Positions 1 to 61,000 of a stretch of 64,000 nt of DNA are shown here, piece by piece; the first letter of the stretch is position 1, and the number at the start of each line of letters is the position of its first letter. The translations under genes were made by a program, and so were the position numbers. Location: the NCBI GenBank assembly GCA_028712155.1, contig JAQTQO010000002.1:11851-75850 (forward strand), read 5' to 3'. The stretch comes from Patescibacteria group bacterium (GTDB lineage Bacteria > Patescibacteriota > Patescibacteriia > Buchananbacterales > GWA2-38-13). Under the pieces are notes generated by a model that was not told the DNA's origin, made no database searches, and saw only the letters and a list, made by a program, of their open reading frames with translations.

Positions 1-189
1 GAGAGGTCTAGGAAATGGTCCGTCTTTCGCAGTAGCTGTCGCTACAGCTACGGAGGATTGAGATATCGAGTGGATATTATTGGAAAAATATCTATGGAAA
101 TGACAAAGCGTAGAAAAATATTTGATACTAACTAATTGGAAAAAAATAGACCAGCAATTTAATTCACACAAACATCATTTGTATATTTT

Positions 190-2355
190 GTGTATATGGA
201 AAGAATATATATTATACCAAGGCCAAAAATTTTCGAAGAGAAACATCTAGTAAATATTGTGGAGTATCGAAAATATGTCGCTGAAGGTTGGAGGCCCAAA
301 AATCGGAGAGCGAAAAAAAATCTCATTTTACAAAAGAAACGAAAACCGTGGCAACTCTTCGAAGATCAAGTCTTTTTGTTTTTTAAGGATGCCCTTAAAT
401 TCCCATTTGTTGAAAAGGGGAAACATTATGGACGAAGCCAGGTTGACATTGCGGCAGGGATTGATGACATTCTTCTAATAATTGACTGCAAAACCAAAGA
501 GGAACCGGGTCCAAAAAATTTGCACACCTACATTACTGCGCACGCTGGTAAACAAGGAACAATAAAAAATTATATCCACCAACAGTTTGGAAAAAAATAT
601 AAACACATACAGTTCATATTAGTCGTGAAGGATATTGATTACTCGGAGAGGGATGTTCAATACGCAAAGGAAAGTAATGTATACCTGTGGGGAGAACGAT
701 ATTTTGAAATTATTGAATATTTGTATCAGATCATTGGACCAGAAAGTCGATACTATTTTTTGAAAGAACTTGCGGTTGGTGATATGCCAATAAAAGACGG
801 TTCTGGTAGATATTTTGAGTGCCCATCCCTCATGGTTCAGCATAATAGTATTCGGATCTACAATTTTTTTATCGAGGCAACCAAGCTTCTTAAATTGGCA
901 TATGTAGCCAACTTGGACCGTGGGACTAAATATTTCTATCAAAGACTGGTCAATAAAAGTCGTCTCCAGGAGATCGGGCAATTTATAGAACAAAATGGCA
1001 CGTTTAAAAATTGCATAATCGTTTCATTTGAAAATAGACCCCCTCGACCAAAAATTATTAAATCGTATAAATCAGAAGATGATAATCAAATTAACATCGT
1101 TCATTTAAAAATTAAAAAAATATATCTAAGTCTCTGGATTATTGACGGACAGCATAGACTATACGGTTTCGCCCGCGTCAGCGACATGCTCAAAAAAAAT
1201 TTATTGCCAGTTGTTGCGATTGAGGATGCTGACAAATCCGAACAAGCCAGAACTTTCGTAGATATAAACCAAAAGCAAAAACCAGTTGATTCTAGTTTGC
1301 TCTGGGTGCTATTTGACCAATTGCGATCAGACCGAGAGGAGGGGGCTATATCACGACTAGTTAAGCGCCTAGCGAATTCTGGTATATTTTACGGAAAAAT
1401 TTATATTCCCGGGACTTCAAGAAGGCGGAGAAAAAATTACACAATTTTCTTTAGTAACTTTTGTAAAGGTATTCTCGACCGCAACATTATTGATGCCAAA
1501 GATAATAATAGTCTATATCGCCTATTGGGAAAAAACGGATACAATGGCGGAGATATTGATAAAGTTGCTAATGAGCTTGAAAAATATTTTCGTCTGCTGT
1601 GCGCTGTGTCGAAAAGCACACGTCATCCCAAATGGATCAACGGATTTATCCTTACGAATAATGGATTGAACGTATTTTTAAGGGTCTTCGCACGCTGCTT
1701 GATTCATTGTCGTGGGGTAATTCATCTCAAAGAATGGAATACATTATTGAGGGCACCCCTAAAGCAATTTTTTTATGAAAATTATGAAAAAATTGACGAA
1801 CTTCGGCGCAAAACAAGTAGTGAGGGCACTCGTGAAGATTTGGCATACACGATTATCGGGCTCATAAATAGATCCGACCCGTCAGGATTATTCGCGCAAG
1901 AGTACATTTTGCGAAAGAACCACAACGTCACAGAAACCGACACATACAAGGTTTACGAATCTCTAGAAAAAAACTTGAGAAAACTATTAAAAGTACATTT
2001 AGGGAAAATATCCACAAACTGGTGGAAGGAACGGCTACCTGAAGACGTCCGAGAGCGCGCCGAGGAAGCACATCGCAAGGGTAATAATCCTAACCCCTTT
2101 ATCATTACGCAACCGAGAAATGTAATAGAATGCCTTGATTTCATGGATTACCCAAAAATATTTACAAGAGGAGATAATTGGCGCGATATCTTCAAAGAAA
2201 TTTTTTGTGACGAAGAAGTGCTGCGGACGTGGTTTAAAGAGTTGAAACCAATTCGCAATAAAATTGCACACCCAGCTAATATGAGCACTGATGAAAAATC
2301 TAAGTTCTTAGAAAACTGTGAAAAACTGAATAAAATCATCGAGCAAAAAATATAG
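190..2355 (+). CDS. Multidomain defence-like protein: N-terminal Mrr-cat-like PD-(D/E)xK nuclease motif, central DGQHR (DndB-like, ParB-fold) domain, C-terminal HEPN-like RNxxxH motif
   Basis: 721-aa ORF; the tool start at 190 is GTG and the first ATG is at 196. The gene is ~30% GC against ~62% GC flanks. Motifs seen: VDIAAGIDDILLIIDCKTK (D..GID..x11..DCK, as in Mrr catalytic domains); IIDGQHRLYGF and FVDINQKQKPV (DGQHR/DndB signature); IRNKIAHP near the C-terminus (Rx4H HEPN motif). A strong GC-rich terminator follows. Confidence 0.55.
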   Translation: MYMERIYIIPRPKIFEEKHLVNIVEYRKYVAEGWRPKNRRAKKNLILQKKRKPWQLFEDQVFLFFKDALKFPFVEKGKHYGRSQVDIAAGIDDILLIIDCKTKEEPGPKNLHTYITAHAGKQGTIKNYIHQQFGKKYKHIQFILVVKDIDYSERDVQYAKESNVYLWGERYFEIIEYLYQIIGPESRYYFLKELAVGDMPIKDGSGRYFECPSLMVQHNSIRIYNFFIEATKLLKLAYVANLDRGTKYFYQRLVNKSRLQEIGQFIEQNGTFKNCIIVSFENRPPRPKIIKSYKSEDDNQINIVHLKIKKIYLSLWIIDGQHRLYGFARVSDMLKKNLLPVVAIEDADKSEQARTFVDINQKQKPVDSSLLWVLFDQLRSDREEGAISRLVKRLANSGIFYGKIYIPGTSRRRRKNYTIFFSNFCKGILDRNIIDAKDNNSLYRLLGKNGYNGGDIDKVANELEKYFRLLCAVSKSTRHPKWINGFILTNNGLNVFLRVFARCLIHCRGVIHLKEWNTLLRAPLKQFFYENYEKIDELRRKTSSEGTREDLAYTIIGLINRSDPSGLFAQEYILRKNHNVTETDTYKVYESLEKNLRKLLKVHLGKISTNWWKERLPEDVRERAEEAHRKGNNPNPFIITQPRNVIECLDFMDYPKIFTRGDNWRDIFKEIFCDEEVLRTWFKELKPIRNKIAHPANMSTDEKSKFLENCEKLNKIIEQKI

Positions 2356-2393
2356 CTTTTACCTTCCCATAACAGTACAATAAAGTTACTACG

Positions 2394-2422
2394 ACGCCCG
2401 GCTAACGAACCGGGCGTTTTTA
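2394..2422 (+). terminator. Rho-independent terminator after the AT-rich island gene
   Basis: Perfect 8-bp stem ACGCCCGG/CCGGGCGT at 2394-2401 and 2410-2417, 8-nt loop, followed by TTTTTAT. Confidence 0.7.
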
Positions 2423-2500
2423 TATCTTCACAAAAACTTCACAAAAAAAGTGCACACTGGGATTACCGAAATTTCAAAAAACCATTAGTCTGGGCGAAGT

Positions 2501-2899
2501 ATGAAAAAAACAAGGAAAGGCGCCGCTCCCCGCCAACCAAAACCTCGTCCGCGCGCCAACGAAGCGGAGGGGGAAAGCGCCGTACTCGCGGCGATCGCCA
2601 CGATGCCGGAACCGGATCGCACCATAGGCGTGCGGCTACATACTATCATCAGGGCCAGTGCGCCGGCTCTCTTGCCAAGACTGTGGTACAGCATGCCCGC
2701 GTATGCCAACAAGGACGGCAAGATCGTTTGCTTCTTCCAGAGCACGCAGAGGTTTCATACGAGGTACGCGACTCTGGGCTTCATGCACGAAGCGAATCTC
2801 GACGAAGGAGCCATGTGGCCGGTCGCCTTTGCGCTGAAGGATTTGACCGCCGCCGAAGGGGTAACGATAGCCGCGCTCGTGAAGAAGGCGGTGAGCTGA
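2501..2899 (+). CDS. DUF1801 (YdhG-like) domain protein
   Basis: 132 aa. Basic N-terminus, then ...[32 protein letters not shown]...[11 protein letters not shown]..., which resembles YdhG/DUF1801 family proteins. High GC (host-like). Confidence 0.45.
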
Positions 2900-2970
2900 T
2901 TACCAAGCCTTGCTGAGGAAAGATACTTTGTCTTTCTGCTAATGAGTAGGTATAATATTTCTAGAAGTGT

Positions 2971-3537
2971 ATGAACACTACCAATAAAATCGTTACTGTT
3001 CTTGTTGTCGCGGCCATTGCCGTCGCTACAATGGTGATTGCACTCAACATCCAGAACGGACCAGCGATGCAACCGCAGCCGAGCCCGACACCGACGGCGT
3101 CAGTAACGCCAATTTCATCACCAACACCGACACCAGCCACCGGCGTGGAATACCGCAACACCGAGTATGGTTTCAGTTTCCCGCTGCCGGAGAGCTGGCG
3201 CGGGCACACCATTGTCGAAGAAACCTGGCAGGGAGCCACATCCACAGATAGTGGCGAAAAGGTAGTCGAGCACGGCCCGCAGTTGAGCATCCGGCATCCG
3301 CTGTGGACGGATGAAAACCCGCGGCAGGATATCCCGATTATGATTTTCACGCTCGCGCAATGGGACGCCCTGCAGCAGGATAAATTCCACATCGGCGCGG
3401 CGCCGATCGGTCCCAGCGAACTTGGCCGCAACGCGACGTACGTGTTTGCACTTCCGGCGCGGTACAACTACGCGTACCCGACCGGATACGAAGAGGTAGA
3501 CCAGATTCTCCAGAGCAAACCGCTTCACGCGTTCTGA
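2971..3537 (+). CDS. Membrane-anchored or secreted hypothetical protein with Pro/Thr-rich linker
   Basis: 188 aa. N-terminal hydrophobic segment IVTVLVVAAIAVATMVIAL, then PQPSPTPTASVTPISSPTPTPA linker and a globular domain. No recognised family. Confidence 0.5.
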   Translation: MNTTNKIVTVLVVAAIAVATMVIALNIQNGPAMQPQPSPTPTASVTPISSPTPTPATGVEYRNTEYGFSFPLPESWRGHTIVEETWQGATSTDSGEKVVEHGPQLSIRHPLWTDENPRQDIPIMIFTLAQWDALQQDKFHIGAAPIGPSELGRNATYVFALPARYNYAYPTGYEEVDQILQSKPLHAF

Positions 3538-3568: not shown

Positions 3569-4063
3569 ATGTATCCAGCTTCTAGTAAAGGATTGAACCG
3601 AGAAACGGACGAGGCCGTTTACTTTTTTACCCCCACCTTTGCGCCATTGGATAATTTTTCTGCACATACGGTTCGCGTTTGGGGCAAAACATTCCCTACA
3701 GCGGAACACGCGTTCCAGTGGAAAAAATTTTCATCTTCGCATGATGACGTGGCTGAAAAAATTCTGCTGGCGGAAAGTCCGCATGCAGTAAAAAGAATTT
3801 CCGACCAATACAAAAGTGCCGTACCTTTTTCCTGGATCGACGAACGAACTGTCGTAATGGAACAAATACTTCGATCCAAAGCCGAACAGCACGAAGATGT
3901 CCGCGACGCGCTGAAAAGAACTGGAATAAGGACAATTATTGAAAATTCTCCAGTCGACAATTTTTGGGGCATCGGACCGGATAAAAAAGGAGAAAACGCG
4001 GTGGGAAAAATCTGGATGAAAATACGCGATGAGATTCTATCAAATCGTCATATTAATTTGTAA
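3569..4063 (+). CDS. NADAR family protein (YbiA-like, DUF1768)
   Basis: 164 aa. ...FFTPTFAPLDNFSAHTVRVWGKTFPTAEHAFQWKKF...NFWGIGPDKKGENAVGKIWMKIRDE is typical of NADAR/YbiA N-glycosidase-like proteins. Confidence 0.7.
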   Translation: MYPASSKGLNRETDEAVYFFTPTFAPLDNFSAHTVRVWGKTFPTAEHAFQWKKFSSSHDDVAEKILLAESPHAVKRISDQYKSAVPFSWIDERTVVMEQILRSKAEQHEDVRDALKRTGIRTIIENSPVDNFWGIGPDKKGENAVGKIWMKIRDEILSNRHINL

Positions 4064-4080: not shown

Positions 4081-4368
4081 ATGTTGCACGAAGACCGTGA
4101 AAATTTATCCGACCGCACCCAAAACCTCAAGCGGGCGATCGACTCCCTGACGGAAGAACTGACCGCCGTGGACTGGTACAACCAGCGCGCGGACGCCACC
4201 ACCGACGACAATTTGAAAAAAATTCTCCTGCATAACGCCAACGAGGAGAAAGAACACGCCGCCATGCTGCTCGAATGGATTCGCCAACACGACGAGGGTT
4301 TTGCCAAGGAACTCAAACAATACCTTTTTGCCAAAGGCGCTGACATCGCCAATCTGGAAAAGGTCTAG
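4081..4368 (+). CDS. Ferritin-like protein, encapsulated-ferritin (EncFtn)-like
   Basis: 95 aa. ...LTAVDWYNQRADATTDDNLKKILLHNANEEKEHAAMLLEWIRQHDE... matches the EncFtn pattern (AVDWY.QR.DA...HN..EEKEHAAM.LEW.R). No encapsulin shell gene is nearby. Confidence 0.5.
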   Translation: MLHEDRENLSDRTQNLKRAIDSLTEELTAVDWYNQRADATTDDNLKKILLHNANEEKEHAAMLLEWIRQHDEGFAKELKQYLFAKGADIANLEKV

Positions 4369-5432
4369 TGCGTATGCCGCGCGGTCAAACACACAGCGTC
4401 GAGTGCCGGCTTTACCGGAAACTGGACGACAATTTTGTGCAGTGCCAAACCTGCCGTCATGCCTGTAAAATCAGGGATGGCAGCGTCGGTGTGTGCGGCG
4501 TGCGCCAGAACATCGGCGGCCGGCTGCAGCTTTTGGTGTACGGTAAAGTCGCCGCTATGCACGTTGACCCGATCGAGAAAAAACCGCTGTTTCATTTTCT
4601 CCCCGGCAGTTCGACATTTTCATTCGGGACGCTGGGCTGCAATTTCCGCTGCGACAACTGCCACAACGCCGAACTTTCGCAGATGTCCAACGCGAAAGGC
4701 CGCGTCAAGGATTACGCCAAGCTGTCTTGGGGCGAGTCAGTCTCGCCGGCAGAAATCGTCGCCAGCGCCCAGGCGACGCAGTGCCAGAGTATCGCCTATA
4801 CCTACAACGAGCCGACGGTTTTTTTCGAGTACGCCCTCGACACCATGCAGCTGGCCCGGAAAGCGGGTTTGAAAAATGTCTGGGTGTCCAACGGCTACAT
4901 GTCGTCGCAAACGCTTGATGCGATCATCCCCTACCTGGACGCCGTCAACGTGGACATCAAATCCGGGGACGAATCGTTCTACCAAAAAAGCTGCGGCGGC
5001 AAACTCCAAGCGATCCTGGAAAACTGCCAACACCTGGTCAGAGAGAAAATCTGGCTTGAGATCACCACCCTGGTGATCCCGACGCTCTCGGACGGCGCGG
5101 AAACGCTTGCCAAAGTCGCCGCGTTCATCGCCAAAGAGCTTGGCGATTTCGTACCCTGGCACGTGAGCGCGTTCTCCGGCGCCATCTCATGGAAACTACA
5201 GGACCTGCCGGATACGCCGGTCAAAACGATTCAGCGCGCCTACCGCATCGGCCAGGACGCGGGACTCGAATACGTCTACGCCGGCAATGTGTGGGACCGC
5301 GATACCGAGAGCACCCGCTGCCCGCAGTGCGGTAAGATGGTCATCGAGCGCTCCGGCTATCAGGTCACGCGGCACGACCGCGACGGCGCGTGCCCGGGCT
5401 GCAAGACCGTACTTGCCGGTGTCTACCATTGA
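4368..5432 (+). CDS. AmmeMemoRadiSam-system-type radical SAM enzyme (PflA-like activating enzyme)
   Basis: 354 aa. N-terminal Cys cluster CQTCRHAC...VCGV, then FGTLGCNFRCDNCHN (radical SAM CxxxCxxC context typical of AmmeMemoRadiSam proteins) and a C-terminal CPQCG...CPGC motif. Start overlaps the upstream stop. Confidence 0.75.
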   Translation: MRMPRGQTHSVECRLYRKLDDNFVQCQTCRHACKIRDGSVGVCGVRQNIGGRLQLLVYGKVAAMHVDPIEKKPLFHFLPGSSTFSFGTLGCNFRCDNCHNAELSQMSNAKGRVKDYAKLSWGESVSPAEIVASAQATQCQSIAYTYNEPTVFFEYALDTMQLARKAGLKNVWVSNGYMSSQTLDAIIPYLDAVNVDIKSGDESFYQKSCGGKLQAILENCQHLVREKIWLEITTLVIPTLSDGAETLAKVAAFIAKELGDFVPWHVSAFSGAISWKLQDLPDTPVKTIQRAYRIGQDAGLEYVYAGNVWDRDTESTRCPQCGKMVIERSGYQVTRHDRDGACPGCKTVLAGVYH

Positions 5433-8125: not shown

Positions 8126-8146
8126 AACGGGTGCACGGTTTCTGTG

Positions 8147-8174
8147 CCCGGGAGTTGTTCTCCCGGGTATTTTC
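8147..8174 (+). terminator. Rho-independent terminator after mgtA
   Basis: Stem CCCGGGAG/CTCCCGGG, loop TTGTT, then TATTTTC. It overlaps the tool-predicted 5' extension of the next ORF, so that ORF's true start lies downstream. Confidence 0.55.
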
Positions 8175-8236
8175 ATGTACGGGAGTCAACCGCAGGCGGT
8201 CTAGAAATTTGGCGGCAAATACGCTACAGTGAAGCC

Positions 8237-9682
8237 ATGGCGCACACCCATTCCGGGGCGACGCAGGCCCATCAAAAGAAAAGTGTCGCTCTCAGCTCGG
8301 TCTTCGCGAGCGTATTTTTAACGCTGATAAAACTGGTCGTCGGGATCACCACGGGCAGCTTGGGCATCATTTCCGAAGCGGCACACTCGGCGCTGGATTT
8401 TGTCGCGGCGCTCCTGACGTTCTTTGCCGTCCGGGTCGGCGATAAACCGGCCGACAAGGACCATCCGTACGGCCACACCAAAATGGAGAGCGTCTCGGCG
8501 TTGATCGAGACCGGCCTGCTGTTCTTGACCAGCGCCTGGATCATCTACGAAGCGGTCAAACGGCTGTTCTTCAAAAACGTCCACGTAGAAACTGCCTGGT
8601 ACGCTCTAGTGATCATCGTCATTTCCATTGTTGTTGATATTTCCCGTTCACGCGCGCTGCGCAAAGTGGCAACCGCTACGCACAGCCAGGCGCTGGAAGC
8701 CGATGCCCTGCATTTCAGTTCGGATATCTGGAGTTCACTGGCGGTGCTGGTCGGTTTGCTGGCGGTGCAGTTTGGCATCGGCAGCAATGCGGACTCCATC
8801 GCGGCCCTGGTTGTTGCCGGCCTGGTACTGGTCACCGGTTATAAGCTCGGCAAACGAACCATCGATGTGTTGGTGGACGCGGCACCGGAAGGCATTACCG
8901 ACCGCATCACCCACCTGGCCAAAGGCATTGACGGCGTGCTCGGCGTGGCCAAAGTCCGCGTCCGCCATGCCGGCGCATTTTTCTTCGCTGATCTGACCGT
9001 CCACGTTCACCGGAAATTATCGCTTGAAAAAGTGCAGGAAATCTGCAACCGGATCGAACAGCAGATCGAGCGGGCGCTGCCCGGCGTAGATCTGACCGTG
9101 CATGCCGTTCCGCTCTCGCAGGATAACGAAACCATTATTGAGCGCGTGCAATTGATCGCCGCGCGCCATAATCTCGCCGTCCACGACATCGTGGCGCACT
9201 CCCAGGCCGGCCGGACCTTCGTCAGTTTCGATCTGGAGGTGACCGCGAACCTCACGATCGGCGAAGCCCATGCGACGGCCACCCAGCTGGAAACCGCGAT
9301 CCAGAACGAACTGGGCAGCGACCTGGTCATCAATACGCACATCGAACCGCTGCGCAACGCCGTGATGCCCAGCGCCAGCGCTCCTCCCGAGGAAACTGCC
9401 GCGGTCAACGACGCCATTGGCGCGATTGCCGCAACGCTACCCGGGGTACGCGGGACCCACGATGTCCGTGTGCGCCAATCCGACCGACAGCTGTTCGTCA
9501 CGCTGCACTGCTACTTCGACGCGGAAACTCCGCTGGAGGACGCCCATAATCTCGCCAGCCGGTTCGAATACCGGTTGAAAGAAAAAATTCCCCACATGCA
9601 ACGCGCTGTAGTGCATGTGGAGCCGGCTGCCGCCGGCGGCGCGCATCAGGCGCACCATCGTACCGTACGAAAGATTGATTAA
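8237..9682 (+). CDS. Cation diffusion facilitator (CDF) family metal efflux transporter with extended/duplicated C-terminal cytoplasmic domain
   Basis: Start taken at the MAHTHSG Met, after the terminator. CDF signature: ...AAHSALDFVAALLTFFAVRVGDKPADKDHPYGHTKMESVSALIETG.... Two consecutive CTD-like segments each contain ...VHV/HVEP.... Confidence 0.75.
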   Translation: MAHTHSGATQAHQKKSVALSSVFASVFLTLIKLVVGITTGSLGIISEAAHSALDFVAALLTFFAVRVGDKPADKDHPYGHTKMESVSALIETGLLFLTSAWIIYEAVKRLFFKNVHVETAWYALVIIVISIVVDISRSRALRKVATATHSQALEADALHFSSDIWSSLAVLVGLLAVQFGIGSNADSIAALVVAGLVLVTGYKLGKRTIDVLVDAAPEGITDRITHLAKGIDGVLGVAKVRVRHAGAFFFADLTVHVHRKLSLEKVQEICNRIEQQIERALPGVDLTVHAVPLSQDNETIIERVQLIAARHNLAVHDIVAHSQAGRTFVSFDLEVTANLTIGEAHATATQLETAIQNELGSDLVINTHIEPLRNAVMPSASAPPEETAAVNDAIGAIAATLPGVRGTHDVRVRQSDRQLFVTLHCYFDAETPLEDAHNLASRFEYRLKEKIPHMQRAVVHVEPAAAGGAHQAHHRTVRKID

Positions 9683-9694
9683 CCCATTAAACCT

Positions 9695-10366
9695 ATGAAG
9701 ATAAAACCCGGCGAAATCATTGCGGCCGTCATCATCGTGGTCGCGTCGTACGCCACCTGGCTGGTTTACCCGCGCCTGCCCGACCGCCTCGCCTCCCACT
9801 GGGGGATAAACGGACAAGTGGACGGCTACCTGCCTAAATTCTGGGGAGCGGCGATCATGCCGCTCATCGCCGTGGCGCTCCTCATTTTGCTGGCGGTCCT
9901 GCCGCGCATCGATCCCCAGAAAGAAAACATCAAAAAAATTCGCGGATACTTTGACGGATTTCTCGTCACCATTTTTCTTTTTTTGGCCTACCTGCAATTT
10001 CTGGTCATCGCTTGGAATCTCAACTACCATCTCAATATCGTCCGTTGGATGATCCCGGCGATGGCGGTACTCTTCGGCGTCACCGGCCTGCTGATCGGCC
10101 ATGTTGAACCTAACTGGACGATCGGTATCCGTACCCCGTGGTCATTGTCCAGCGCAACGGTCTGGCGAAAAACGCACGCACTGGGCGGTCGCTTGTTCTA
10201 CGTTGCCGCCGTCGTAATGCTCGGCGGAATGATCTACCCGGCACTGGCGATTTGGTTCATCATCATACCGGCGGTGGCCGCAGCGCTTGTGGCCATGGTA
10301 TATTCGTATATTCTCTACCGCGGTGAAAGCAAAAATCCTAATCACCCGGCTCCAACGGCACGTTAG
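9695..10366 (+). CDS. DUF1648/SdpI-family membrane protein
   Basis: 223 aa, multi-TM. N-terminus ...YPRLPDRLASHWGINGQVDGY... is DUF1648-like; C-terminal half ...NWTIGIRTPWSLSSATVWRKTHALGGRLF... is SdpI/YhfL-like. Confidence 0.55.
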   Translation: MKIKPGEIIAAVIIVVASYATWLVYPRLPDRLASHWGINGQVDGYLPKFWGAAIMPLIAVALLILLAVLPRIDPQKENIKKIRGYFDGFLVTIFLFLAYLQFLVIAWNLNYHLNIVRWMIPAMAVLFGVTGLLIGHVEPNWTIGIRTPWSLSSATVWRKTHALGGRLFYVAAVVMLGGMIYPALAIWFIIIPAVAAALVAMVYSYILYRGESKNPNHPAPTAR

Positions 10367-10410
10367 TCAGCGCAACGTTGCCGGCATGGCTTGGTCTCGC
10401 ATCAGTACTC

Positions 10411-11028
10411 ATGCGTTTCATTGATCTTACCCGGACGTTGACCGACCATATCGCAGTCTACCCCGGCGATCCGGCCGTCCACCTGGCTGACGTTGCGACC
10501 CTAGCCAAAGACGGCTACCGCGGCAGCCGCATCGATGCGGGCGTGCATGCCGGCACACACCTTGATGCACCGGCGCATTTTATTGAAAATGGAAAACGGG
10601 TGGATGAAATGGATGCCGCCCGGCTGATCGGCCGGGGCCGTTTGGTTGATGCCCGCAAATTCCGCACGATCGATGCACACCTGCTCGAAGAACTGACCGT
10701 GGAGCCGGGTGACATCGTGCTGATCTGGACCGGCTGGAGTAAAAAATTCGGCGATCCGAAATATTTTACTGATTTTCCGGAGCTCACCGCGGAGCTCGCC
10801 AAACGCATCATTGCCGCCGGCGCGGTGATGGTCGGATTGGACAGCCCCAGCCCCGACCGGCCGCCGCACGCAGTCCACCGGCTGCTCATGCAAGCGGACA
10901 TTGCCATTGTTGAAAACCTCACCGGCCTGGAATTACTGGCCTCCGCAACGCCGTTTGAGGTCGTTGCGCTGCCGGCAAAATGGCACACGGAAGCAGCGCC
11001 GGTGCGCGTGGTGGCACGAATTTTCTGA
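10411..11028 (+). CDS. Cyclase family protein / kynurenine formamidase (KynB)-like
   Basis: HAGTHLDAPAHF motif (HxGTHxDxPxH) and an overall fold-family match. Start placed at the MRFIDLTR Met. Confidence 0.7.
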   Translation: MRFIDLTRTLTDHIAVYPGDPAVHLADVATLAKDGYRGSRIDAGVHAGTHLDAPAHFIENGKRVDEMDAARLIGRGRLVDARKFRTIDAHLLEELTVEPGDIVLIWTGWSKKFGDPKYFTDFPELTAELAKRIIAAGAVMVGLDSPSPDRPPHAVHRLLMQADIAIVENLTGLELLASATPFEVVALPAKWHTEAAPVRVVARIF

Positions 11029-11038
11029 ACCGTAATGT

Positions 11039-11584
11039 ATGGCGACCGAACACGTTGTTTTAGTTGACGAAAACGATCACGTCCTTGGTACCGCGCCGAA
11101 AGCGACGGTACACGAAAAAACCACACCGCTGCATCGCGGATTTTCGCTGTTCATTTTCAGCCCGCGCGGCGAATTGCTGCTGCAGCAGCGGGCGCTCACC
11201 AAAGTCACCTGGCCGGGCGTGTGGTCAAACAGCTGCTGCGGACACCCGGCGCTCGAGGAGAAGAATGTCGAAGCGGCGAAACGACGCGCCCACGACGAGC
11301 TTGGTTTGACGCTGACGGAAATTATTGAAATGTCCCCGTACCGCTACCGCTTCACTCGTGCGGGTGTGCAAGAGAATGAAATTTGCCCGATTCTCGTTGC
11401 CGCTACAGCGCAAACGCCAAACATCAATCCGCAAGAAGTCGCTGCCATCCGCTGGATCGCGTGGGGAAAATTCGTTGAAGAAATCAGCACCACACCAGGC
11501 CGCTACTCGGAATGGTGCGAAGAAGAGGTGTTGATTCTGCAACACAGCAAAAAATTCCAGGATTGGTACGGAAAAATTGGATAG
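11039..11584 (+). CDS. idi: Isopentenyl-diphosphate delta-isomerase, type 1 (Nudix)
   Basis: 181 aa. ...HRGFSLFIFSPRGELLLQQRALTKVTWPGVWSNSCCGHPALEE... carries the IDI-1 signature (W.G.W..SCCGHP). Confidence 0.8.
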   Translation: MATEHVVLVDENDHVLGTAPKATVHEKTTPLHRGFSLFIFSPRGELLLQQRALTKVTWPGVWSNSCCGHPALEEKNVEAAKRRAHDELGLTLTEIIEMSPYRYRFTRAGVQENEICPILVAATAQTPNINPQEVAAIRWIAWGKFVEEISTTPGRYSEWCEEEVLILQHSKKFQDWYGKIG

Positions 11585-11596
11585 AGAGTCAGACAA

Positions 11597-11620
11597 TAAA
11601 ATCGGCCGCAGCCGATTTTA
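11597..11620. terminator. Bidirectional rho-independent terminator between idi (+) and gatA (-)
   Basis: AAAATCGGC cgca GCCGATTTT: a 9-bp stem flanked by an A-run and a T-run, sitting between convergent genes. Confidence 0.6.
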
Positions 11621-11639
11621 TTATTGCCCAACGGTCCGA

Positions 11640-13121
11640 TTACAATTTCGGGTCGCAGGAGAACTTCACCGCCTGCTCCAAATGATGACCGGCGCGTAAA
11701 ATCGTCTCTTCGTCAAAAGGTTTGCCAATCAGCTGCAGTCCCACCGGCAGTTTTACTCCGCCTTCGGGCGGTTCGGCCAGACCAACCGGTAACGAGAGGC
11801 CGGGCACTCCGGCGACATTGCCGGCGACGGTGTAGACATCAGCGAGGTACATGCTCAACGGATCATCTGCTTTGGCGCCGATCTTGAACGCGACAGTCGG
11901 CGACGTCGGTGTCACCAAGCAGTCAACTTTTTTGAACGCCTGTTCGAAATCTTGGCGCACCAGCGTCCGCACGGCCAGCGCTTTCTTGTAGTAGGCATCG
12001 TAGTACCCGGCCGACAGCGCGTAGGTGCCAAGCATAATGCGGCGACGGATTTCGGCGCCAAAGCCCGCACCGCGGGTTTCGGCATACTGCGCGATCAGCG
12101 TCGGCGCTTCCCGGCGGCTCAAACCGTAACGGATGCCGTCGTAGCGGGCGAGGTTGGCGGACAATTCGGCCGGCATGATCACGTAGTAGGCCGCCAAGGC
12201 GTAATCGGTATGCGGCAGGCTGATATCGGTCACGATTTTTGCCCCCAGGGTTTCCAGAATTTTCAGCGCGGCGGAAAAACTCTTCCGCACGCCGTCTTCC
12301 AGCCCCGCGGTGGAGTCGGAAAAATATTCTTTCGGAACGCCGATGCGTAAACCCTTGATGGATTTCCTGAGCGCGGCCGCATAGTCGGGTACCGGTTGCG
12401 GCGACGTGGTCGAATCCTTCGGGTCAAGGCCGGCGATCGCCCGCAACACAATAGCGGTATCCTCGACGGTCCGGGTGAACGGTCCGATCTGGTCGAGCGA
12501 CGACGCCATGGCCATCAGTCCGTACCGCGACACGCGGCCATACGTCGGTTTCAGCCCGACGATCCCGCACAGGCTGGCCGGCTGGCGGATCGAACCGCCG
12601 GTATCCGAGCCCATCGCGAAACACGACATGCCTGCGGCCACGGCCGCCGCCGAACCGCCGCTGGAACCGCCGGGAACTCGCGTCGCATCCCACGGATTTT
12701 TGGTCGGGCCGAACGCCGAATGCTCGGTCGAGGAACCGCAGGCGAACTCGTCCATATTCGACTTCCCGAGCAGTATCGAGTCCTGCTGCTTGAGTTTTTC
12801 AACCACGGTACCGTCGTACGTGGCCGTATAATTTTCCAAAATTTTAGAACCGGCGGTGGTTTTTGTTCCGGCCGCCAGAAAAATATCTTTCAGCACCATG
12901 GGAATGCCCGCGAGCGGATGCGCGAACTTTTTTCGGCGATCCAACTGATCCGCGTGCGCTAACGCATCGTCGCCATAGACTGCCAGCAGCGCGTGGAGAC
13001 GGCCGTTATCCTTTTGGATGCGATCCAAATACGCCTGCGTCAGCTCGCGGCAGGAAAACTTTTTTTGATCCAAACCGGCGCGCGCGGCCGTCAGGCTCGA
13101 TGGCGGCAGTGTGTTTGCCAT
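11640..13121 (-). CDS. gatA: Glutamyl-tRNA(Gln) amidotransferase subunit A
   Basis: 493 aa with the amidase signature GGSSGGSAAAVAAG. Start overlaps the gatC stop. Confidence 0.9.
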   Translation of the reverse strand: MANTLPPSSLTAARAGLDQKKFSCRELTQAYLDRIQKDNGRLHALLAVYGDDALAHADQLDRRKKFAHPLAGIPMVLKDIFLAAGTKTTAGSKILENYTATYDGTVVEKLKQQDSILLGKSNMDEFACGSSTEHSAFGPTKNPWDATRVPGGSSGGSAAAVAAGMSCFAMGSDTGGSIRQPASLCGIVGLKPTYGRVSRYGLMAMASSLDQIGPFTRTVEDTAIVLRAIAGLDPKDSTTSPQPVPDYAAALRKSIKGLRIGVPKEYFSDSTAGLEDGVRKSFSAALKILETLGAKIVTDISLPHTDYALAAYYVIMPAELSANLARYDGIRYGLSRREAPTLIAQYAETRGAGFGAEIRRRIMLGTYALSAGYYDAYYKKALAVRTLVRQDFEQAFKKVDCLVTPTSPTVAFKIGAKADDPLSMYLADVYTVAGNVAGVPGLSLPVGLAEPPEGGVKLPVGLQLIGKPFDEETILRAGHHLEQAVKFSCDPKL

Positions 13122-55035: not shown

Positions 55036-58000
55036 CTACTCCCACACCGGCAGGGCGCCGATCACCGCCTCCAAACCGGGCGGCGGGTTGGTCAAAATCC
55101 TCCCGTCATAGATGATTTGTTCCGCCGGATCGGAAATGTTGTTATATGTGCGCTGGAAGAGATATTTGCGCGCCACCATAATGCCGTGCACAGTCAACTT
55201 GGATGAGCCGACCAAGGTATCAATGGCGCCGCAATCAACCAATAACGACCCCGTCGAATCGCACCTCATGTTCGCATACGCCGGCCGGCCCAGCGCGATC
55301 AGGCTGCTGTCCAGTTGGCTCACGGCCGGAGCGATGTTGATGCCGCCGAGCGCAATCCACGTGGCCGAAGCAACATGACTGGGCTTGGCCGGAGTTGTCA
55401 TCCCATAAATTGTCCCAGCGTTGAACGTCAAATTTCCCTTGATGAGGAAGAGTCCGGCGCCGTTCCTATTGATGCTCGCCGAACCGCTATTAAACGTCCA
55501 CGGCTTGGAAATCGTGCAATTACCGTCGTAGTAATAAATGGCCCCATTCAGGACACTATCGGTGGCCACCCATGGCGGGGTAGTGGCATTGGGATCCGTA
55601 CAGATCGTACCAAGATTTATAACCTTATTGCTGCCGTAACGCTGCCGCAGCTTTCCGATGACCGTCCCGGGGTCGTCGGCGTTGCTCGAATTGTAGAACT
55701 TCTTCGCTTCGTCATTGTATCCCTGCAAGAACCACAGGCTGCCACCGGGCGTGGTGAAGTCATTCTTGTAGCTGGGGAACGCCATTGCGGTATAGCCGGG
55801 CAGTTGGCCGGTGCCTCCGAAGGCGGTGGAATCGCTCGTCCATTTCGTGATCGTACCGCCGCTCTTAATCAGAAACGTCGCGTTGTTCAAACCGGACTGG
55901 AACTGGGCATTGAGACTGCCGCCAACGAACACATCGCCAAATTTGGTTTGCAGCCACGGTTTTGACTCGGAGAACAGCGGATCACTCTCGTTGCCGAAAT
56001 CATCCACGGCAATAATGTTGTACAACAGGCCGTTCTGTATTCTCGAATACAGCACCGTCGTGCACGTGCCGCTCCCGCAGTTGATCTGGCCAAGGTTGGC
56101 GTCAAAGGTCGGATATAACGTCTGCCAGTCGCAACTCTCGTGGGGCAAACCGCTCGCCAAAATGCACTTCCCGGTTCCGCACGCGGCATTCAGCGCTTTC
56201 CCGTAGCAATTTTGCCCGCTGACCGTACAGCGGTAACGGTGGATATCCTCCCATGCCCACGGCCCGTTGGTGGCGTCGCCGTCGCCTAATGAACCGCCCC
56301 GCCGGCAGGTGCCTTCCGTGCCCGGGCACACCGCGCCATCAACGTAACAAGGGTTGTCGCTCACGCTGCAGTAGAGCAGCGGATTTCTGACCTCATCGGC
56401 ATTGGTGCCGTACCAAATCTCATAGTGGGCGCCATACCGGTTGCCGCTGACGGTATTGTACGGGGTCCACGAACGGATTTCCGGATCGGCACTGCTGGTT
56501 TCTTCATCCGTTGATTCGACCGGCGTAAACGTAATGGTCCGGCTGTAGATGTTGATATTACCGCACAAACTGATGGGAATCGCCGCAGAGGGCATCCCCC
56601 AGCTCGGTGACTGATCAGGGAAGCTGGGCGACTGCAGGTCCATCATCACCCGCTGCCGCCGGGTCCAGTTGTTGTACCACGGTTTCGTCGAATCTTTGGC
56701 GCACGCGAAGTTGCATACACCGCCGTACGCGGCGCAATTGGTCGCCGGGTTGCTGCACAGGTCAACCGACGACGTCCGGACCCCGGCCGACCAGCACGGC
56801 AAATCTCCCGAGCACTTCACGCTGTCATTGGCGAACAGTTCCAGCCAGAACGGGGTCCGTATATTCTGGTTGCGGATATAGGTCGCGGATTGGCCCAAGC
56901 TGTCATATGCGTCCCAGTAGAAATCAATCGTGCTGACGTAACCCAAGTTCCAGTTTGGAGTGAACAGTGTGGTGACGTTATTCCAGTCCCGCGCCAAGAC
57001 GGGAGTGGTCACGCCAATTTGCGGGAAAAGGGTATCTGAACCGGGAATATGGTCATCCGGATTATCCACGGACGGCTGCGCCCAGCTGCACGGCTGGGTA
57101 CACCAGGGATAACCATACGGGTTGCCCATGGCGTTGGTCGTCGTGGCGGTGGGCAAGGAACCGTACGCTCCGATACCGGGTTGAACGGGCAGCTGGGCAT
57201 GGTTGTAGGTGCCAACCCGGGCGATGCTGTAGAAATAATTCCAAGCCCAATACGTGCCTTTCCAGCCACGCACAATCGGGTCGGTCCACTCCGGCTGCGG
57301 GGATTCCCTGGCAAACATCAAACCCACCGAAAGGTTGCTGCCCTCGAAATCCCCGAACTGTGCCTTGATTTTAAACTTGCCGCGGGCGTTTTCGCGCTGC
57401 TCCAGCGTCCAGGAGCGCAGCGGCTGCAGCTGTGTGGTAAATGAGGTCGGAACTCCGCTGGCATTGGCGGAAAACCGCGCATACGGTGCCACGCAGCTTT
57501 CCGCGCTGTTCGGCACACCTTTCTCATACGGGTAGTTGGTGTTCAGCTTGAGCGACGTGCCGGCGGCAAACGCGAAATCATTGGCTCCCGCAAACGACCG
57601 GTTGCCGCAATAGCTCAAGTCAACGCTGCAGTCGGGGTCAGATCCAGTGGGACAGTCCGCATCACACACGCTGTCGGAGACTGGCAGGCAGCAGTCGTTG
57701 ACGGCGTTCGTGCAAATGTGCCCGATCAGTTTCGACCAGCAATCTTCGCCATCAACAGGGCCACCATCAGTTCTCGTCGCGCAATCCGGATCGCACTGCT
57801 GATCGTTGACTGCCAGACAGCAATTATCCTTGCGGCCGGTACAGGTGGCGGTGCAGTCCGGATCCTGATAATTGTAGCTATGATCTTTGCAATCAAGGTC
57901 GCACATCCCGTCAGCAGTTGTGCTGCACACACCACAATCAGGATCAAGGCCGGCGGCGCACTGCTGGTCGCAGATGCCGTTCACCGACGGGTCGCACACC

Positions 58001-61000
58001 GCGTTCCGGGTATCGGCCGTAGGCGGCGGGCAATCGGGGTCTTTGCCCGGCGGACAACCATAGTCGCACGCGCCGTCCTGCCAAGGCTGGCATCCCGCCA
58101 CGACGGGACGCTGCCCGGGCGCGATGCAGTCCGGATCCAGGCCGTTAGGACAGTCGGGGTCACAAATACCGTCCACGGCCGGATAGCAACAGTCGATCGC
58201 CGTGCAGTCCGCGTCTACCTGCGGGCCAAGCCCAATCGGTCCGCAGTCTGCATCGCAGAAATAATCGCGCGGCGGCTGGTTGGTCACCGGATCAAGAAAA
58301 CAGAGACCGTTGGAATTTATCCTATTTCCCGGCTCAAATGCTGCGCGCGCTGTGCACAATGCCGCTTCGCAATCAACATCGGCGGAACCGTACATGCCGC
58401 TCCCGATGCAGTCCGGATCACAATAAGTATCGGCCGCACCGTTGCAGATGCCGTCAGCGCGCGTGGGTGCGCTTGCATTCTGGGTGCAGTTACTGCCGGC
58501 ATTGCATGCATCGCCCGGCCCAACCGCAGTCGCAGTCATCTGGCAATCCGCCCCGTTGCACACGCCACAGTCCGAGTCAACCCCGGCGGGACAATCGGAA
58601 TCGCACGCAGGCGAGCCCCCAACCACCGGCCAGCAGCCGTCATTCGTTCCGGTACCCATCTCGCAATCCGCATCAACAATTCCGCCCGCTAAACTACTGT
58701 ATGCGCAATCCGGATCACACACCCCTGGATCTGGCTCGGCTGCGGGATAGCAATACCCATCCTTGGCCGGACTGACGGTCGGACGGCAGTCTTTGTCGAA
58801 GATATAGCTCGATCCTTGCGCCGTGCCGCACCAATACTCACATCCATCACCGGTCACCGTGCAATCGCTCGATCCCGTGGCGCCTTTGACCCGGCAATCC
58901 GGATCAACTCCGTTGGGACAGTCGGGATCGCACCGGCCGTCCACCATCGGCAGGCAGCAGTCCCCCCCCGCGGACTGGCAATACCCGGTCGGGTTAACCG
59001 TGCCCTTATTACAGTCAGGGTCAACTGTGACCGTGTCGTCGACAATGCCGCAATCCCGGTCGCACCGGCCGTCCTCTGCCGCATTGCAGCAGCCGTCCTT
59101 GGCGGGCTGGCAGACTACCTCGAACGCCCCGCGGTTGTTGAATTTCGTGCCCGAAACCGCGCCGGTGGAGAGGCCGGAGGCCTGGAACTCCCACGCCTGG
59201 TTGTTGCCGGAGGTATTGTGCAGCAAATCATTTTTTCCAGGCAGCGCAATGCCATAGCCGGGACCGCGCGGCGGGTAGTCGCAAGCACCGCTGTGACTGT
59301 CGCACGAGATATTCACGTCGGCGTTCTGTAAGTGGATATCATCGCCCTCGACCACTTGCGCCACGCAGGTGCCCGGCGCACAGTACGACGTCGACGGATC
59401 GCACGTATCGCCGAATTTTGCCCCGCTGTTTTTGTCACACATCGCACCCGGCTGGATGCGAAAATTCTTCAACACGACGTCGGCTCCATTCTCCGCCACT
59501 ACGCCGTGTCCGTTGGGATTCCATATCTCAAAATCGGACACGGTCGCGCCGGAATTATTGAGTACCACGCACGGGCCGTTGCAGTTTTTGAACCAAGCCC
59601 TCTGGATCGTACTGTTGGTCGTGAAATCCAGCTCCAGCGGGTCGGCGCCGTTGATAGTGTAGACGAGATCAGGAAAATCTTTGACGGTGAAGCCGTCGCT
59701 GACTGCCAGCTGCACATGATAGGATTTCAGCGCATAGCACCCGTTACGCGAACAATCAGACGGCTGCGTACACAGCTTGCCGGCTTCAAGATCGTCAATC
59801 CCGCACGCTTTCTCGATGACACGCTTGTCCGCCGGCATTGGCTGCTCCCAGGTCCCGTTCGGATGGTATTCATAATTCTGTGAAATGAAATACACGTTCG
59901 GGTTCATCTCGCAGGTCACAGTCAGCGCGGGGTGGCGGTATGTATACCCGGCGGCCGCATCGGCTTCGTTTCTCATCTGTAACTCGGCGGTATCAGCCGG
60001 GTCAATCACACTGATGACAAAACCGTAATTACTGCGCTGCCCATTAATCCAGTCCTGAACGACTTTCCGCCCGTCCGCGTCCAACGTTTTTTCATATATG
60101 ACAGCTTGTCCGAAACTCTGCGGAGAAAAACTGCCATCCGGGTCGGTCAAATCGTAAATGCCGGGGTCGCCGGGCGTTGTACGCCACTGCCCACACGGCC
60201 AGTAGCCACTGCTGCACGACAAGTTCCACGTGGCTTCGGAATCCACCCAATACTGCCCTACGGCACGGACGGAATACTTGGACGACGCGGAACCGGCGAA
60301 GGTATTGAATGCAATCTTGACATTTTTGACGAGGCAGTTGCCGGGAATTTCGAACATCGGCTGCGACCCGTATGCCAAGATGTCCTGGTACCCCCAACGC
60401 ACCAGAGTGCGCTTTTCCGTTCCGGCGCCTCCTTTTACGCTCAGATTTGAACTATTGTAATTCGTGCTCGGATTTGCTTGGTTGAGGTAGACGTCGTACG
60501 TATTGTTATACGCGCCACCCTGGGAAACGACGGACAGGTCCTGCAGAATATACTCAATCGTTTGCTGATCCTTGGCCTGTCCGGCTGCGTTACTTTCTCC
60601 GATGCGGATGTATTTATACGCGTCAACAGGAAACGAGTACGCCGGATGCGGGTAGCTGCGCAAAGAAGAATCATACGCAACGCGCAGGTACGGATTCTTC
60701 AGCATGACATCGGTGCTGGTCACCGTATTGTGCTGCACCCATGCCCCGACGGTATTGAGGATCTCCAAACCGGCCGGGTTGCCGGTATCCAGGTGCTTGA
60801 TCCCGATGGAATTGCCGATCACCCACAGATTCTCGTAACCGACGATCCGCATGCCCGGGCCCTTGTTGTCGAACATGGTGTTACCGATGAACGTGTTGTA
60901 ATCCACCTCCCGCAGCCAAGCGGATGCCAGGAAACCGCCCGACGCGTTATCTTCGATCGTATTGTAATAAGCATACACATGCGGAGCATCCTGCAGGTGG

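Follow-up and report, generated by a model that had tools for sequence, protein, structure and literature searches.

The AT-rich block and the protein it encodes

The DNA analysed here, referred to as the window, is a stretch of 64,000 nucleotides (nt) of contig JAQTQO010000002.1 from the Patescibacteria assembly GCA_028712155.1. The element under study is the block at positions 60–2422, which encodes one protein with three domains: a restriction-endonuclease (REase) fold of the PD-(D/E)xK type, a DGQHR domain and a HEPN domain. One long open reading frame (ORF) on the forward strand, at 190..2355, gives the 721 residues of the single gene described in an earlier reading of this sequence (hereafter the original prediction) when counted from GTG 190. 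The alignment of homologues favours ATG 196 as the start, which gives a coding sequence at 196..2355 (+) with 719 residues, and the same start was called in an independent assembly. The NCBI record of the identical protein (P0001; contig of 85,996 bp), entitled 'MAG: DGQHR domain-containing protein [Patescibacteria group bacterium]', begins at GTG 259 and has 698 residues. The GTG 259 start would delete a conserved and confidently modelled N-terminal strand, and it probably cuts off 21 conserved residues. Residue numbers follow the 721-residue ORF from GTG 190.

The gene is preceded by an AT-rich leader or promoter region (1..195, +; the GC content of 1–189 is 34%), where a single weak sigma-70-like site is located at 100–129. 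An intrinsic terminator consisting of a GC-rich hairpin and a T-run (2393..2427, +) closes the AT-rich gene; its stem at 2393–2418 has 9 bp, seven of which are G-C, with an 8-nt loop and the tail TTTTATATCTT. The neighbouring gene, which begins at 2501, is of host-type composition, and the return to host composition at a GC-rich terminator was thus correctly described. The GC content of the block is 37.1% versus 57.2% for the remaining window. The compositional contrast is therefore real and large, although the figures originally given for it (about 30% and 62%) were wrong. The block is the lowest-GC 2.3-kb stretch of the window, about 5 standard deviations under the mean. The GC content at third codon positions (GC3) is 36.6% in the three-domain gene; of nine further window genes compared with it, eight have 63–78% and only a NADAR gene is lower, with 40%. 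Family-wide, the GC content of the gene is below that of its flanks in nearly all loci. The foreign composition of the gene stands, and a recent horizontal acquisition, judged from composition, is well supported.

Because the window opens within the AT-rich block and the left edge lies outside, the window alone goes only halfway towards demonstrating an insertion. A Logan contig of 3,485 bp (L083), the only contig found with the gene, is 100% identical to window positions 1–3390 and extends 95 nt further upstream; two pattern scans of metagenomes yielded nothing more. Its positions 1–27, which lie 69–95 nt upstream of window position 1, are the T-arm and acceptor 3′ strand of a transfer RNA (tRNA) or transfer-messenger RNA (tmRNA) gene, inside which the contig ends; Rfam gives a truncated match of the tmRNA/tRNA clan at positions 1–30 (E=7.5e-5). 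The three-domain gene starts ~260 nt downstream of the end of this tRNA-type gene. Genes of this type are classical integration sites for islands. One edge of the block is thus marked by a tRNA/tmRNA gene, whereas the other hallmarks of a tRNA-targeted island, an integrase and a far-edge repeat, are lacking: none of the ten genes annotated in the 13 kb that follow encodes an integrase, and the tRNA 3′ end has no direct repeat (≥10 nt) near 2.4 kb, the right edge of the block. The AT-rich block, the tRNA/tmRNA gene end upstream and the right boundary uphold the proposed insertion in part, and as a mechanism it is no more than suggested. An 11-nt inverted copy of the T-loop (ggattcgaacc) is present at 81–91 of the Logan contig, 5–15 nt upstream of window position 1 and ~65 nt past the tRNA end, which may be the scar of earlier integration events or may have arisen by chance. 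A minus-strand tRNA at this fragment was considered and rejected, as ARAGORN reports no tRNA there and the fold, with a z of −1.5, does not stand out.

The protein begins with a beta-alpha-beta-beta subdomain (residues 1–50; nt 190..339, +), delineated by the AlphaFold2 (AF2) secondary structure and the homologue alignment. It is shared by the clade of this protein and several others, and shorter family members lack it. The PD-(D/E)xK domain follows (residues 51–200; nt 340..789, +), recognised from its AF2 fold and its motifs. The predicted local distance difference test score of the AF2 models is 87 for the full-length protein and 90 for the N-terminal domain. Helix 53–68, strands 73–80, 83–91 and 94–102, helix 111–133 and strand 139–147 make up an alpha-beta-beta-beta-alpha-beta core, and the catalytic candidates E58 (nt 361–363), D86 (nt 445–447) and D99-C100-K101 (nt 484–492) sit on the expected elements of the REase fold. 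The corresponding motifs are VDIAAGIDD (residues 85–93) and IIDCK (residues 97–101). Among the aligned homologues, Q84 and D86 never vary, and at least 90% retain E58 and C100. The domain resembles solved REase-fold nucleases at 10–17% sequence identity, the closest structural neighbours being AF1548 (the best one, which we take to be Mrr-like), the BspD6I subunits, the FokI cleavage domain and the nuclease domains of Can2/Card1. A profile-level relationship of these with the present protein was not found, and their partner domains differ completely.

At the sequence level the picture is different. The N-terminal 215–217 residues have no match in Pfam even at E≤10, including Mrr_cat (PF04471), and membership in the Mrr_cat family is therefore rejected at this level. 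The Mrr-like PD-(D/E)xK domain of the original prediction is thus retained as a fold and not as a family assignment. Searches against solved structures with the protein, the full-family profile and the N-terminal profile gave nothing significant. The best PDB match of the N-terminal profile is Hjc, at an insignificant E of 0.35, on the D...ECK catalytic motif.

The middle of the protein (residues ~213–575; nt 826..1914, +) is a DndB-type DGQHR domain of the ParB/Srx superfamily with a helical extension. It scores 115.5 bits against TIGR03187 (cut-off 58.85; residues 216–500) and 54.2 bits against PF14072 (DndB; cut-off 29.1). The QR, DGQxR and FxxxN motifs, as defined for DGQHR/GmrS domains (PMC4619093), are represented by Y250-Q-R252, D319-G-Q-H-R323 (nt 1144–1158) and F356..N360, the latter two within IIDGQHRLYGF (317–327) and FVDINQKQKPV (356–366), and all are invariant in 46 homologues. 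The ParB fold of this domain rests on sequence profiles and the literature, with no significant structural match; Foldseek found no match at E≤0.001 for the full model against the PDB. Identity with DndB proper or DpdB was tried and rejected. The equivalog scores are far under the cut-offs (17.4 versus 328 for DndB, TIGR03233; 48.5 versus 300 for DpdB, NF041060; 66 versus 450 for DGQHR_dnd_1), and there are no dnd or dpd genes in the window or among the neighbours.

The C-terminal region (residues ~583–720; nt 1936..2349, +) is a HEPN domain of the Swt1/Abi2 type. It passes the cut-off of the Swt1-like HEPN profile (PF18731) and has the expected Rx4-6H signature in the form of an Rx4H motif, R689-N-K-I-A-H694 (nt 2254–2271), within IRNKIAHP (688–695). 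The DGQHR and HEPN assignments were thus both correct, and every motif quoted for the three domains is present in the translation. PADLOC-DB v2.0, which had been suggested as a check, holds no full-length system-specific model that matches the protein; the matches are at the level of single domains, with DpdB at 52 bits for the DGQHR core only, and PDC-M34B and CARF_HEPN for the C-terminus.

The family and its genomic partners

The combination of the three domains, which the original prediction could not place in any described system, turned out to be shared by many proteins. A word-indexed search gave 672 relatives, and a one-genome-per-species scan gave at least 475. The profile of the N-terminal domain, searched against 1.84 billion cluster representatives, has 1,140 matches at E≤1e-3 and 220 at E≤1e-30, most of them 640–890 residues long; the ~1,140 family members counted in this way are clusters at 50% identity. 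All three domains are present in 101 of the 120 nearest relatives, while 15 are without the HEPN domain and four without the N-terminal domain. The taxa include Patescibacteria, DPANN and methanogenic archaea, Chloroflexota, Acidobacteriota, Proteobacteria and others, so that the family covers bacteria and archaea and is prominent in the small-genome lineages of the candidate phyla radiation (CPR) and DPANN. The relatives are labelled only as 'DGQHR domain-containing protein' or 'DndB' in databases. The three-domain family is already populated in databases and uncharacterised as a whole. Phage genomes contain no full-length homologue, and matches covering 80% or more of the protein are confined to three plasmid records, all from Agrobacterium/Rhizobium, which leaves a phage-borne or plasmid-maintenance role unsupported. 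Plasmid pNL1 of N. aromaticivorans has a tblastn match over 67% of the protein, yet it encodes all three domains.

Related fusions were catalogued in silico in 2013. They comprise a ParB and Swt1-HEPN fusion and fusions of DGQHR to PD-(D/E)xK or HEPN (PMC3710099, PMC3632139). Anantharaman et al. (2013) list Swt1/Abi2-type HEPN domains fused to ParB, such as 'Saro_3948', and the MAE_28990 HEPN, whose operons also contain a ParB nuclease and a DNA methylase (PMC3710099). The catalogued fusions and the present family have in common a Swt1-type HEPN joined to a ParB-like domain, a restriction-modification (R-M) context and a PrrC-like backup-RNase logic. In contrast to the present protein, the entry there is a two-domain fusion; an N-terminal REase and a systematic pairing with three methyltransferase classes or a radical-SAM cassette do not appear in the text consulted, and it gives no experiments.

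The genomic context was surveyed by calling ORFs in 80 loci and scanning 141 immediate neighbours, with partners counted over 77 species genomes; Pfam counts are per protein and not per locus, and the cluster hidden Markov models detect only the partner classes used to build them. DNA methyltransferases are the commonest neighbour families, namely MethyltransfD12 (15), MT-A70 (9) and N6_N4_Mtase (8), which PADLOC assigns to the Type II or orphan enzymes. A methyltransferase occupies position +1 or −1 in ~28–30 of the 77 loci, mostly in the same orientation as the gene and spaced from it by −55 to +51 nt. The adjacent cognate methyltransferase expected of a Type II R-M system, which is missing from the window, is therefore found in ~40% of the family loci. 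In another 10–11 of the 77 loci (~14%) a B12-binding radical S-adenosylmethionine (SAM) gene is found instead, in many cases together with a GHKL-type ATPase gene. Over half of the homologues thus share an operon with either a DNA methyltransferase or a radical-SAM cassette. On a neighbour-joining tree the type of partner is coherent within clades, which suggests co-evolution of partner and nuclease. As far as could be found, the systematic pairing of this family with modification modules is undescribed.

The complete cassette, consisting of a small DGQHR protein, a radical-SAM protein and an ATP-binding protein, is carried by two annotated plasmids, pNL1 and one of Agrobacterium, and the large protein beside it has all three domains. 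The pNL1 protein may be the catalogued Saro_3948. The cassette holds the place that the methyltransferase has in other clades, and hence it may be an uncharacterised DNA-modification module; no NCBIfam equivalog names its genes. Its coordinates are 8254–12394 in locus L087 (NC_009426, pNL1) and 8128–12351 in locus L088 (CP072139), and the same clade includes loci L020, L053, L054, L056, L061, L064, L070, L072 and L077. The small DGQHR protein has ~335 residues, the B12-binding radical-SAM protein ~410–545 and the GHKL/HSP90-like ATPase ~510.

The neighbourhoods of the homologues hold methyltransferases, R-M genes and defence or mobile islands, and the defence context assumed in the original prediction is thus supported. 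Among the closest relatives, the gene of one with 58% identity (P0002) is directly downstream of an MmeI-type R-M gene. Another (P0005) lies within a toxin-antitoxin island, in an operon with the order N6_N4 methyltransferase, three-domain gene and DpnI. A third (P0008) belongs to an island with an AlwI R-M system and GmrSD_N+HEPN genes, and in locus L004 the gene is flanked by an IS110 transposase on one side and SIR2_2 on the other. Locus L084 (6666–11041) has an apparent operon of an N6_N4 methyltransferase, the three-domain protein and a DpnI-family methyl-dependent endonuclease, among HigB, PIN, MazE and ParE genes; a methyltransferase beside a methyl-dependent REase is an unusual pairing. 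A gene for a calcineurin-like phosphoesterase (Metallophos, ~333–417 residues) recurs one to two genes from the nuclease gene in L040, L042, L044 and L049, which form a Dehalococcoidia clade linked to N6_N4 methyltransferases, and the P0002 locus also has one, two genes downstream (L001, 6642–7577). This gene may be a third component.

A proposed restriction role and its alternatives

The explanation that we favour, with moderate confidence, is that horizontal transfer brought in the three-domain gene of the window, a solitary copy from a widespread family of ~700-residue proteins, and that this family serves as the nuclease (restriction) arm of R-M-like defence modules. Its observed basis is the set of domains, the intact catalytic motifs, the foreign composition and the genomic linkage of the family to methyltransferases. 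Operonic pairing with a methyltransferase or a cassette argues for a restriction arm coupled to host modification and not for a modification-dependent enzyme; the modification-dependent restriction first suggested for the protein is therefore less favoured. The description as a single-gene determinant holds for this locus only, since it does not fit the operonic majority of the family.

We propose a division of labour among the three domains. The DGQHR module with its helical extension would bind DNA and a nucleoside triphosphate (NTP), and would act as a switch that reads the modification state of the DNA. The literature describes ParB-like DndB/DpdB proteins as binding or hydrolysing ATP/GTP, and in GmrSD-type enzymes a related domain gates the fused nuclease (PMC4619093). 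The PD-(D/E)xK domain would then cut DNA without the host mark. The HEPN domain might provide a second, RNA-directed effector, probably dimeric, that is released if restriction of the DNA fails, following the abortive-infection logic of PrrC; such a role as backup RNases, akin to PrrC, has been proposed for HEPN domains that are joined to R-M nucleases (PMC3710099). The existence of members without HEPN fits such an accessory role.

Several points weigh against this explanation. The 64-kb window was found to contain no methyltransferase of the D12, N6_N4 or MT-A70 families, no radical-SAM cassette and no second defence gene. The clade of the protein is mostly solitary as well, for among its 10 relatives two have an N6_N4 methyltransferase and one an MmeI-type gene, and an adjacent methyltransferase was found in no CPR (Patescibacteria) locus. 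With no partner in the window, a classical modification-blocked REase would be toxic to its own host unless the partner is located upstream of the tRNA gene or elsewhere. No sequence-recognition domain was identified in the protein. The structural matches of the middle domain to ParB proteins are weak (probability 0.75 for Noc and 0.54 for PadC), and the calls of neighbour genes come from a crude approach that takes the longest ORF. Literature searches returned in-silico catalogues only and no experimental characterisation of the family.

This raises the question of how a solitary copy would spare its host. Protection by an unlinked methyltransferase, activation gated by NTP or infection, and recognition of modified foreign DNA are all possible. 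A broader version of the restriction-arm explanation, which we put forward tentatively and hold to be rather doubtful as a whole, takes the family as a modular reader-effector that has been paired repeatedly with three methyltransferase classes and, in one clade, with a radical-SAM cassette possibly installing an undescribed DNA mark. An NTP-gated ParB-like switch would control both a DNase and an RNase, and the solitary copies would be self-sufficient sensors. If so, the family would be a new and widespread class of R-M-like immunity.

An alternative interpretation is that the protein is a stand-alone Type IV (modification-dependent) enzyme like GmrSD, BrxU and SspE, in which a ParB-like nucleoside triphosphatase (NTPase) senses modified foreign DNA and licenses the fused nuclease, with no need for a cognate methyltransferase. 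These enzymes, of Type IV or phosphorothioate-sensing restriction, combine a ParB-like DUF262 NTPase with a DUF1524 HNH nuclease. Like the present protein, they join a ParB/Srx-superfamily domain with DGQxR, QR and FxxxN motifs to a DNA nuclease in one polypeptide, and they occur in defence islands and undergo lateral transfer (PMC4619093). The QR, DGQHR and FxxxN motifs here are parallel to the DGQQR motifs of GmrS/DUF262 (PMC4619093), this copy is solitary like most of its clade and all CPR homologues, and the P0005 operon includes the methyl-dependent DpnI. However, the nuclease of those enzymes is a C-terminal HNH, whereas here it is a PD-(D/E)xK domain at the N-terminus, the ParB-like domain falls within the DGQHR/DndB branch, a HEPN domain is present in addition, and many members are operonic with methyltransferases. 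The Pfam scan gave no match to GmrSD_N/DUF262 or DUF1524 at E≤10. Moreover, the proximity of more than half of the family to a methyltransferase or putative modification cassette, with the partner following the phylogeny, is hard to reconcile with a Type IV enzyme unless the specificities differ. We therefore regard this interpretation as unlikely.

It is less probable still that the protein is a single-protein abortive-infection toxin, in which HEPN would be the main effector, acting on tRNA, ribosomal RNA or messenger RNA and causing growth arrest, with the DGQHR and REase domains as sensors or regulators. The 15 relatives that are without HEPN and keep the other two domains indicate that HEPN is a dispensable module, the catalytic residues of the REase domain are conserved as well as those of HEPN, and the link to methyltransferases would be left unexplained.

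A role as an accessory or regulator resembling DndB or DpdB, that is, a transcriptional repressor or an ATPase helper and not a defence nuclease, seems very improbable. DndB, a regulator of phosphorothioation, and DpdB, the ATPase of 7-deazaguanine insertion, share the DGQHR domain family (TIGR03187/PF14072) with the present protein, and association with modification genes is family-wide. In contrast to them, the protein here is about twice as long and its DGQHR domain is flanked by two nuclease domains, which DndB and DpdB do not have and which, with their conserved catalytic residues, would be roleless in a regulator. The equivalog scores given above also speak against it, as does the lack of dnd, dpd or methyltransferase genes nearby, and the radical-SAM cassette already has a small DGQHR protein of its own. 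That the gene is an inactive relic of a decayed island, as its isolated position beside a tRNA-type gene with no partner gene, integrase or att repeat might suggest, is scarcely credible given an intact 2.16-kb ORF with every family-invariant residue kept, its own terminator and an identical copy assembled independently from a second read set.

If the restriction-arm role of the family is correct, ~1,000 protein clusters would join the repertoire of restriction-type defence, and the protein would represent a natural fusion with one ParB-like nucleotide switch governing both a DNase and an RNase, in which the logic of restriction first and a suicide RNase as backup could be tested in a single polypeptide. 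The clade linked to the radical-SAM/B12 gene could point to a new chemistry of DNA modification. Experiments are made feasible by cultured or plasmid representatives, for example N. aromaticivorans pNL1, Agrobacterium and Rhizobium plasmids, Mesorhizobium sp. L2C084A000 and Undibacterium sp.

Other genes of the window

The ten genes downstream of the block encode a DUF1801-like protein, a NADAR protein, an EncFtn-like protein, a radical-SAM protein, a P-type ATPase, a CDF transporter, an SdpI-like protein, a cyclase, an amidase and one protein with no Pfam match; no methyltransferase is among them. The NADAR-domain gene (PF08719, 99.9 bits; 3569–4063, +) has a GC content of 43% and, as mentioned above, a low GC3, and resembles a second gene of foreign origin, lying ~1.2 kb downstream of the block. 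It is followed by the EncFtn-like gene at 4081–4368 and the radical-SAM gene at 4368–5432. The remaining window is ordinary chromosome, with genes for an NAD-dependent ligase, sulfate activation, glycosyltransferases, an O-antigen ligase and a giant beta-helix protein. The last of these, an ORF of 2,951 residues with NosD/right-handed beta-helix repeats (55036–63891, −), is probably a surface or secreted protein with no relation to the three-domain gene.

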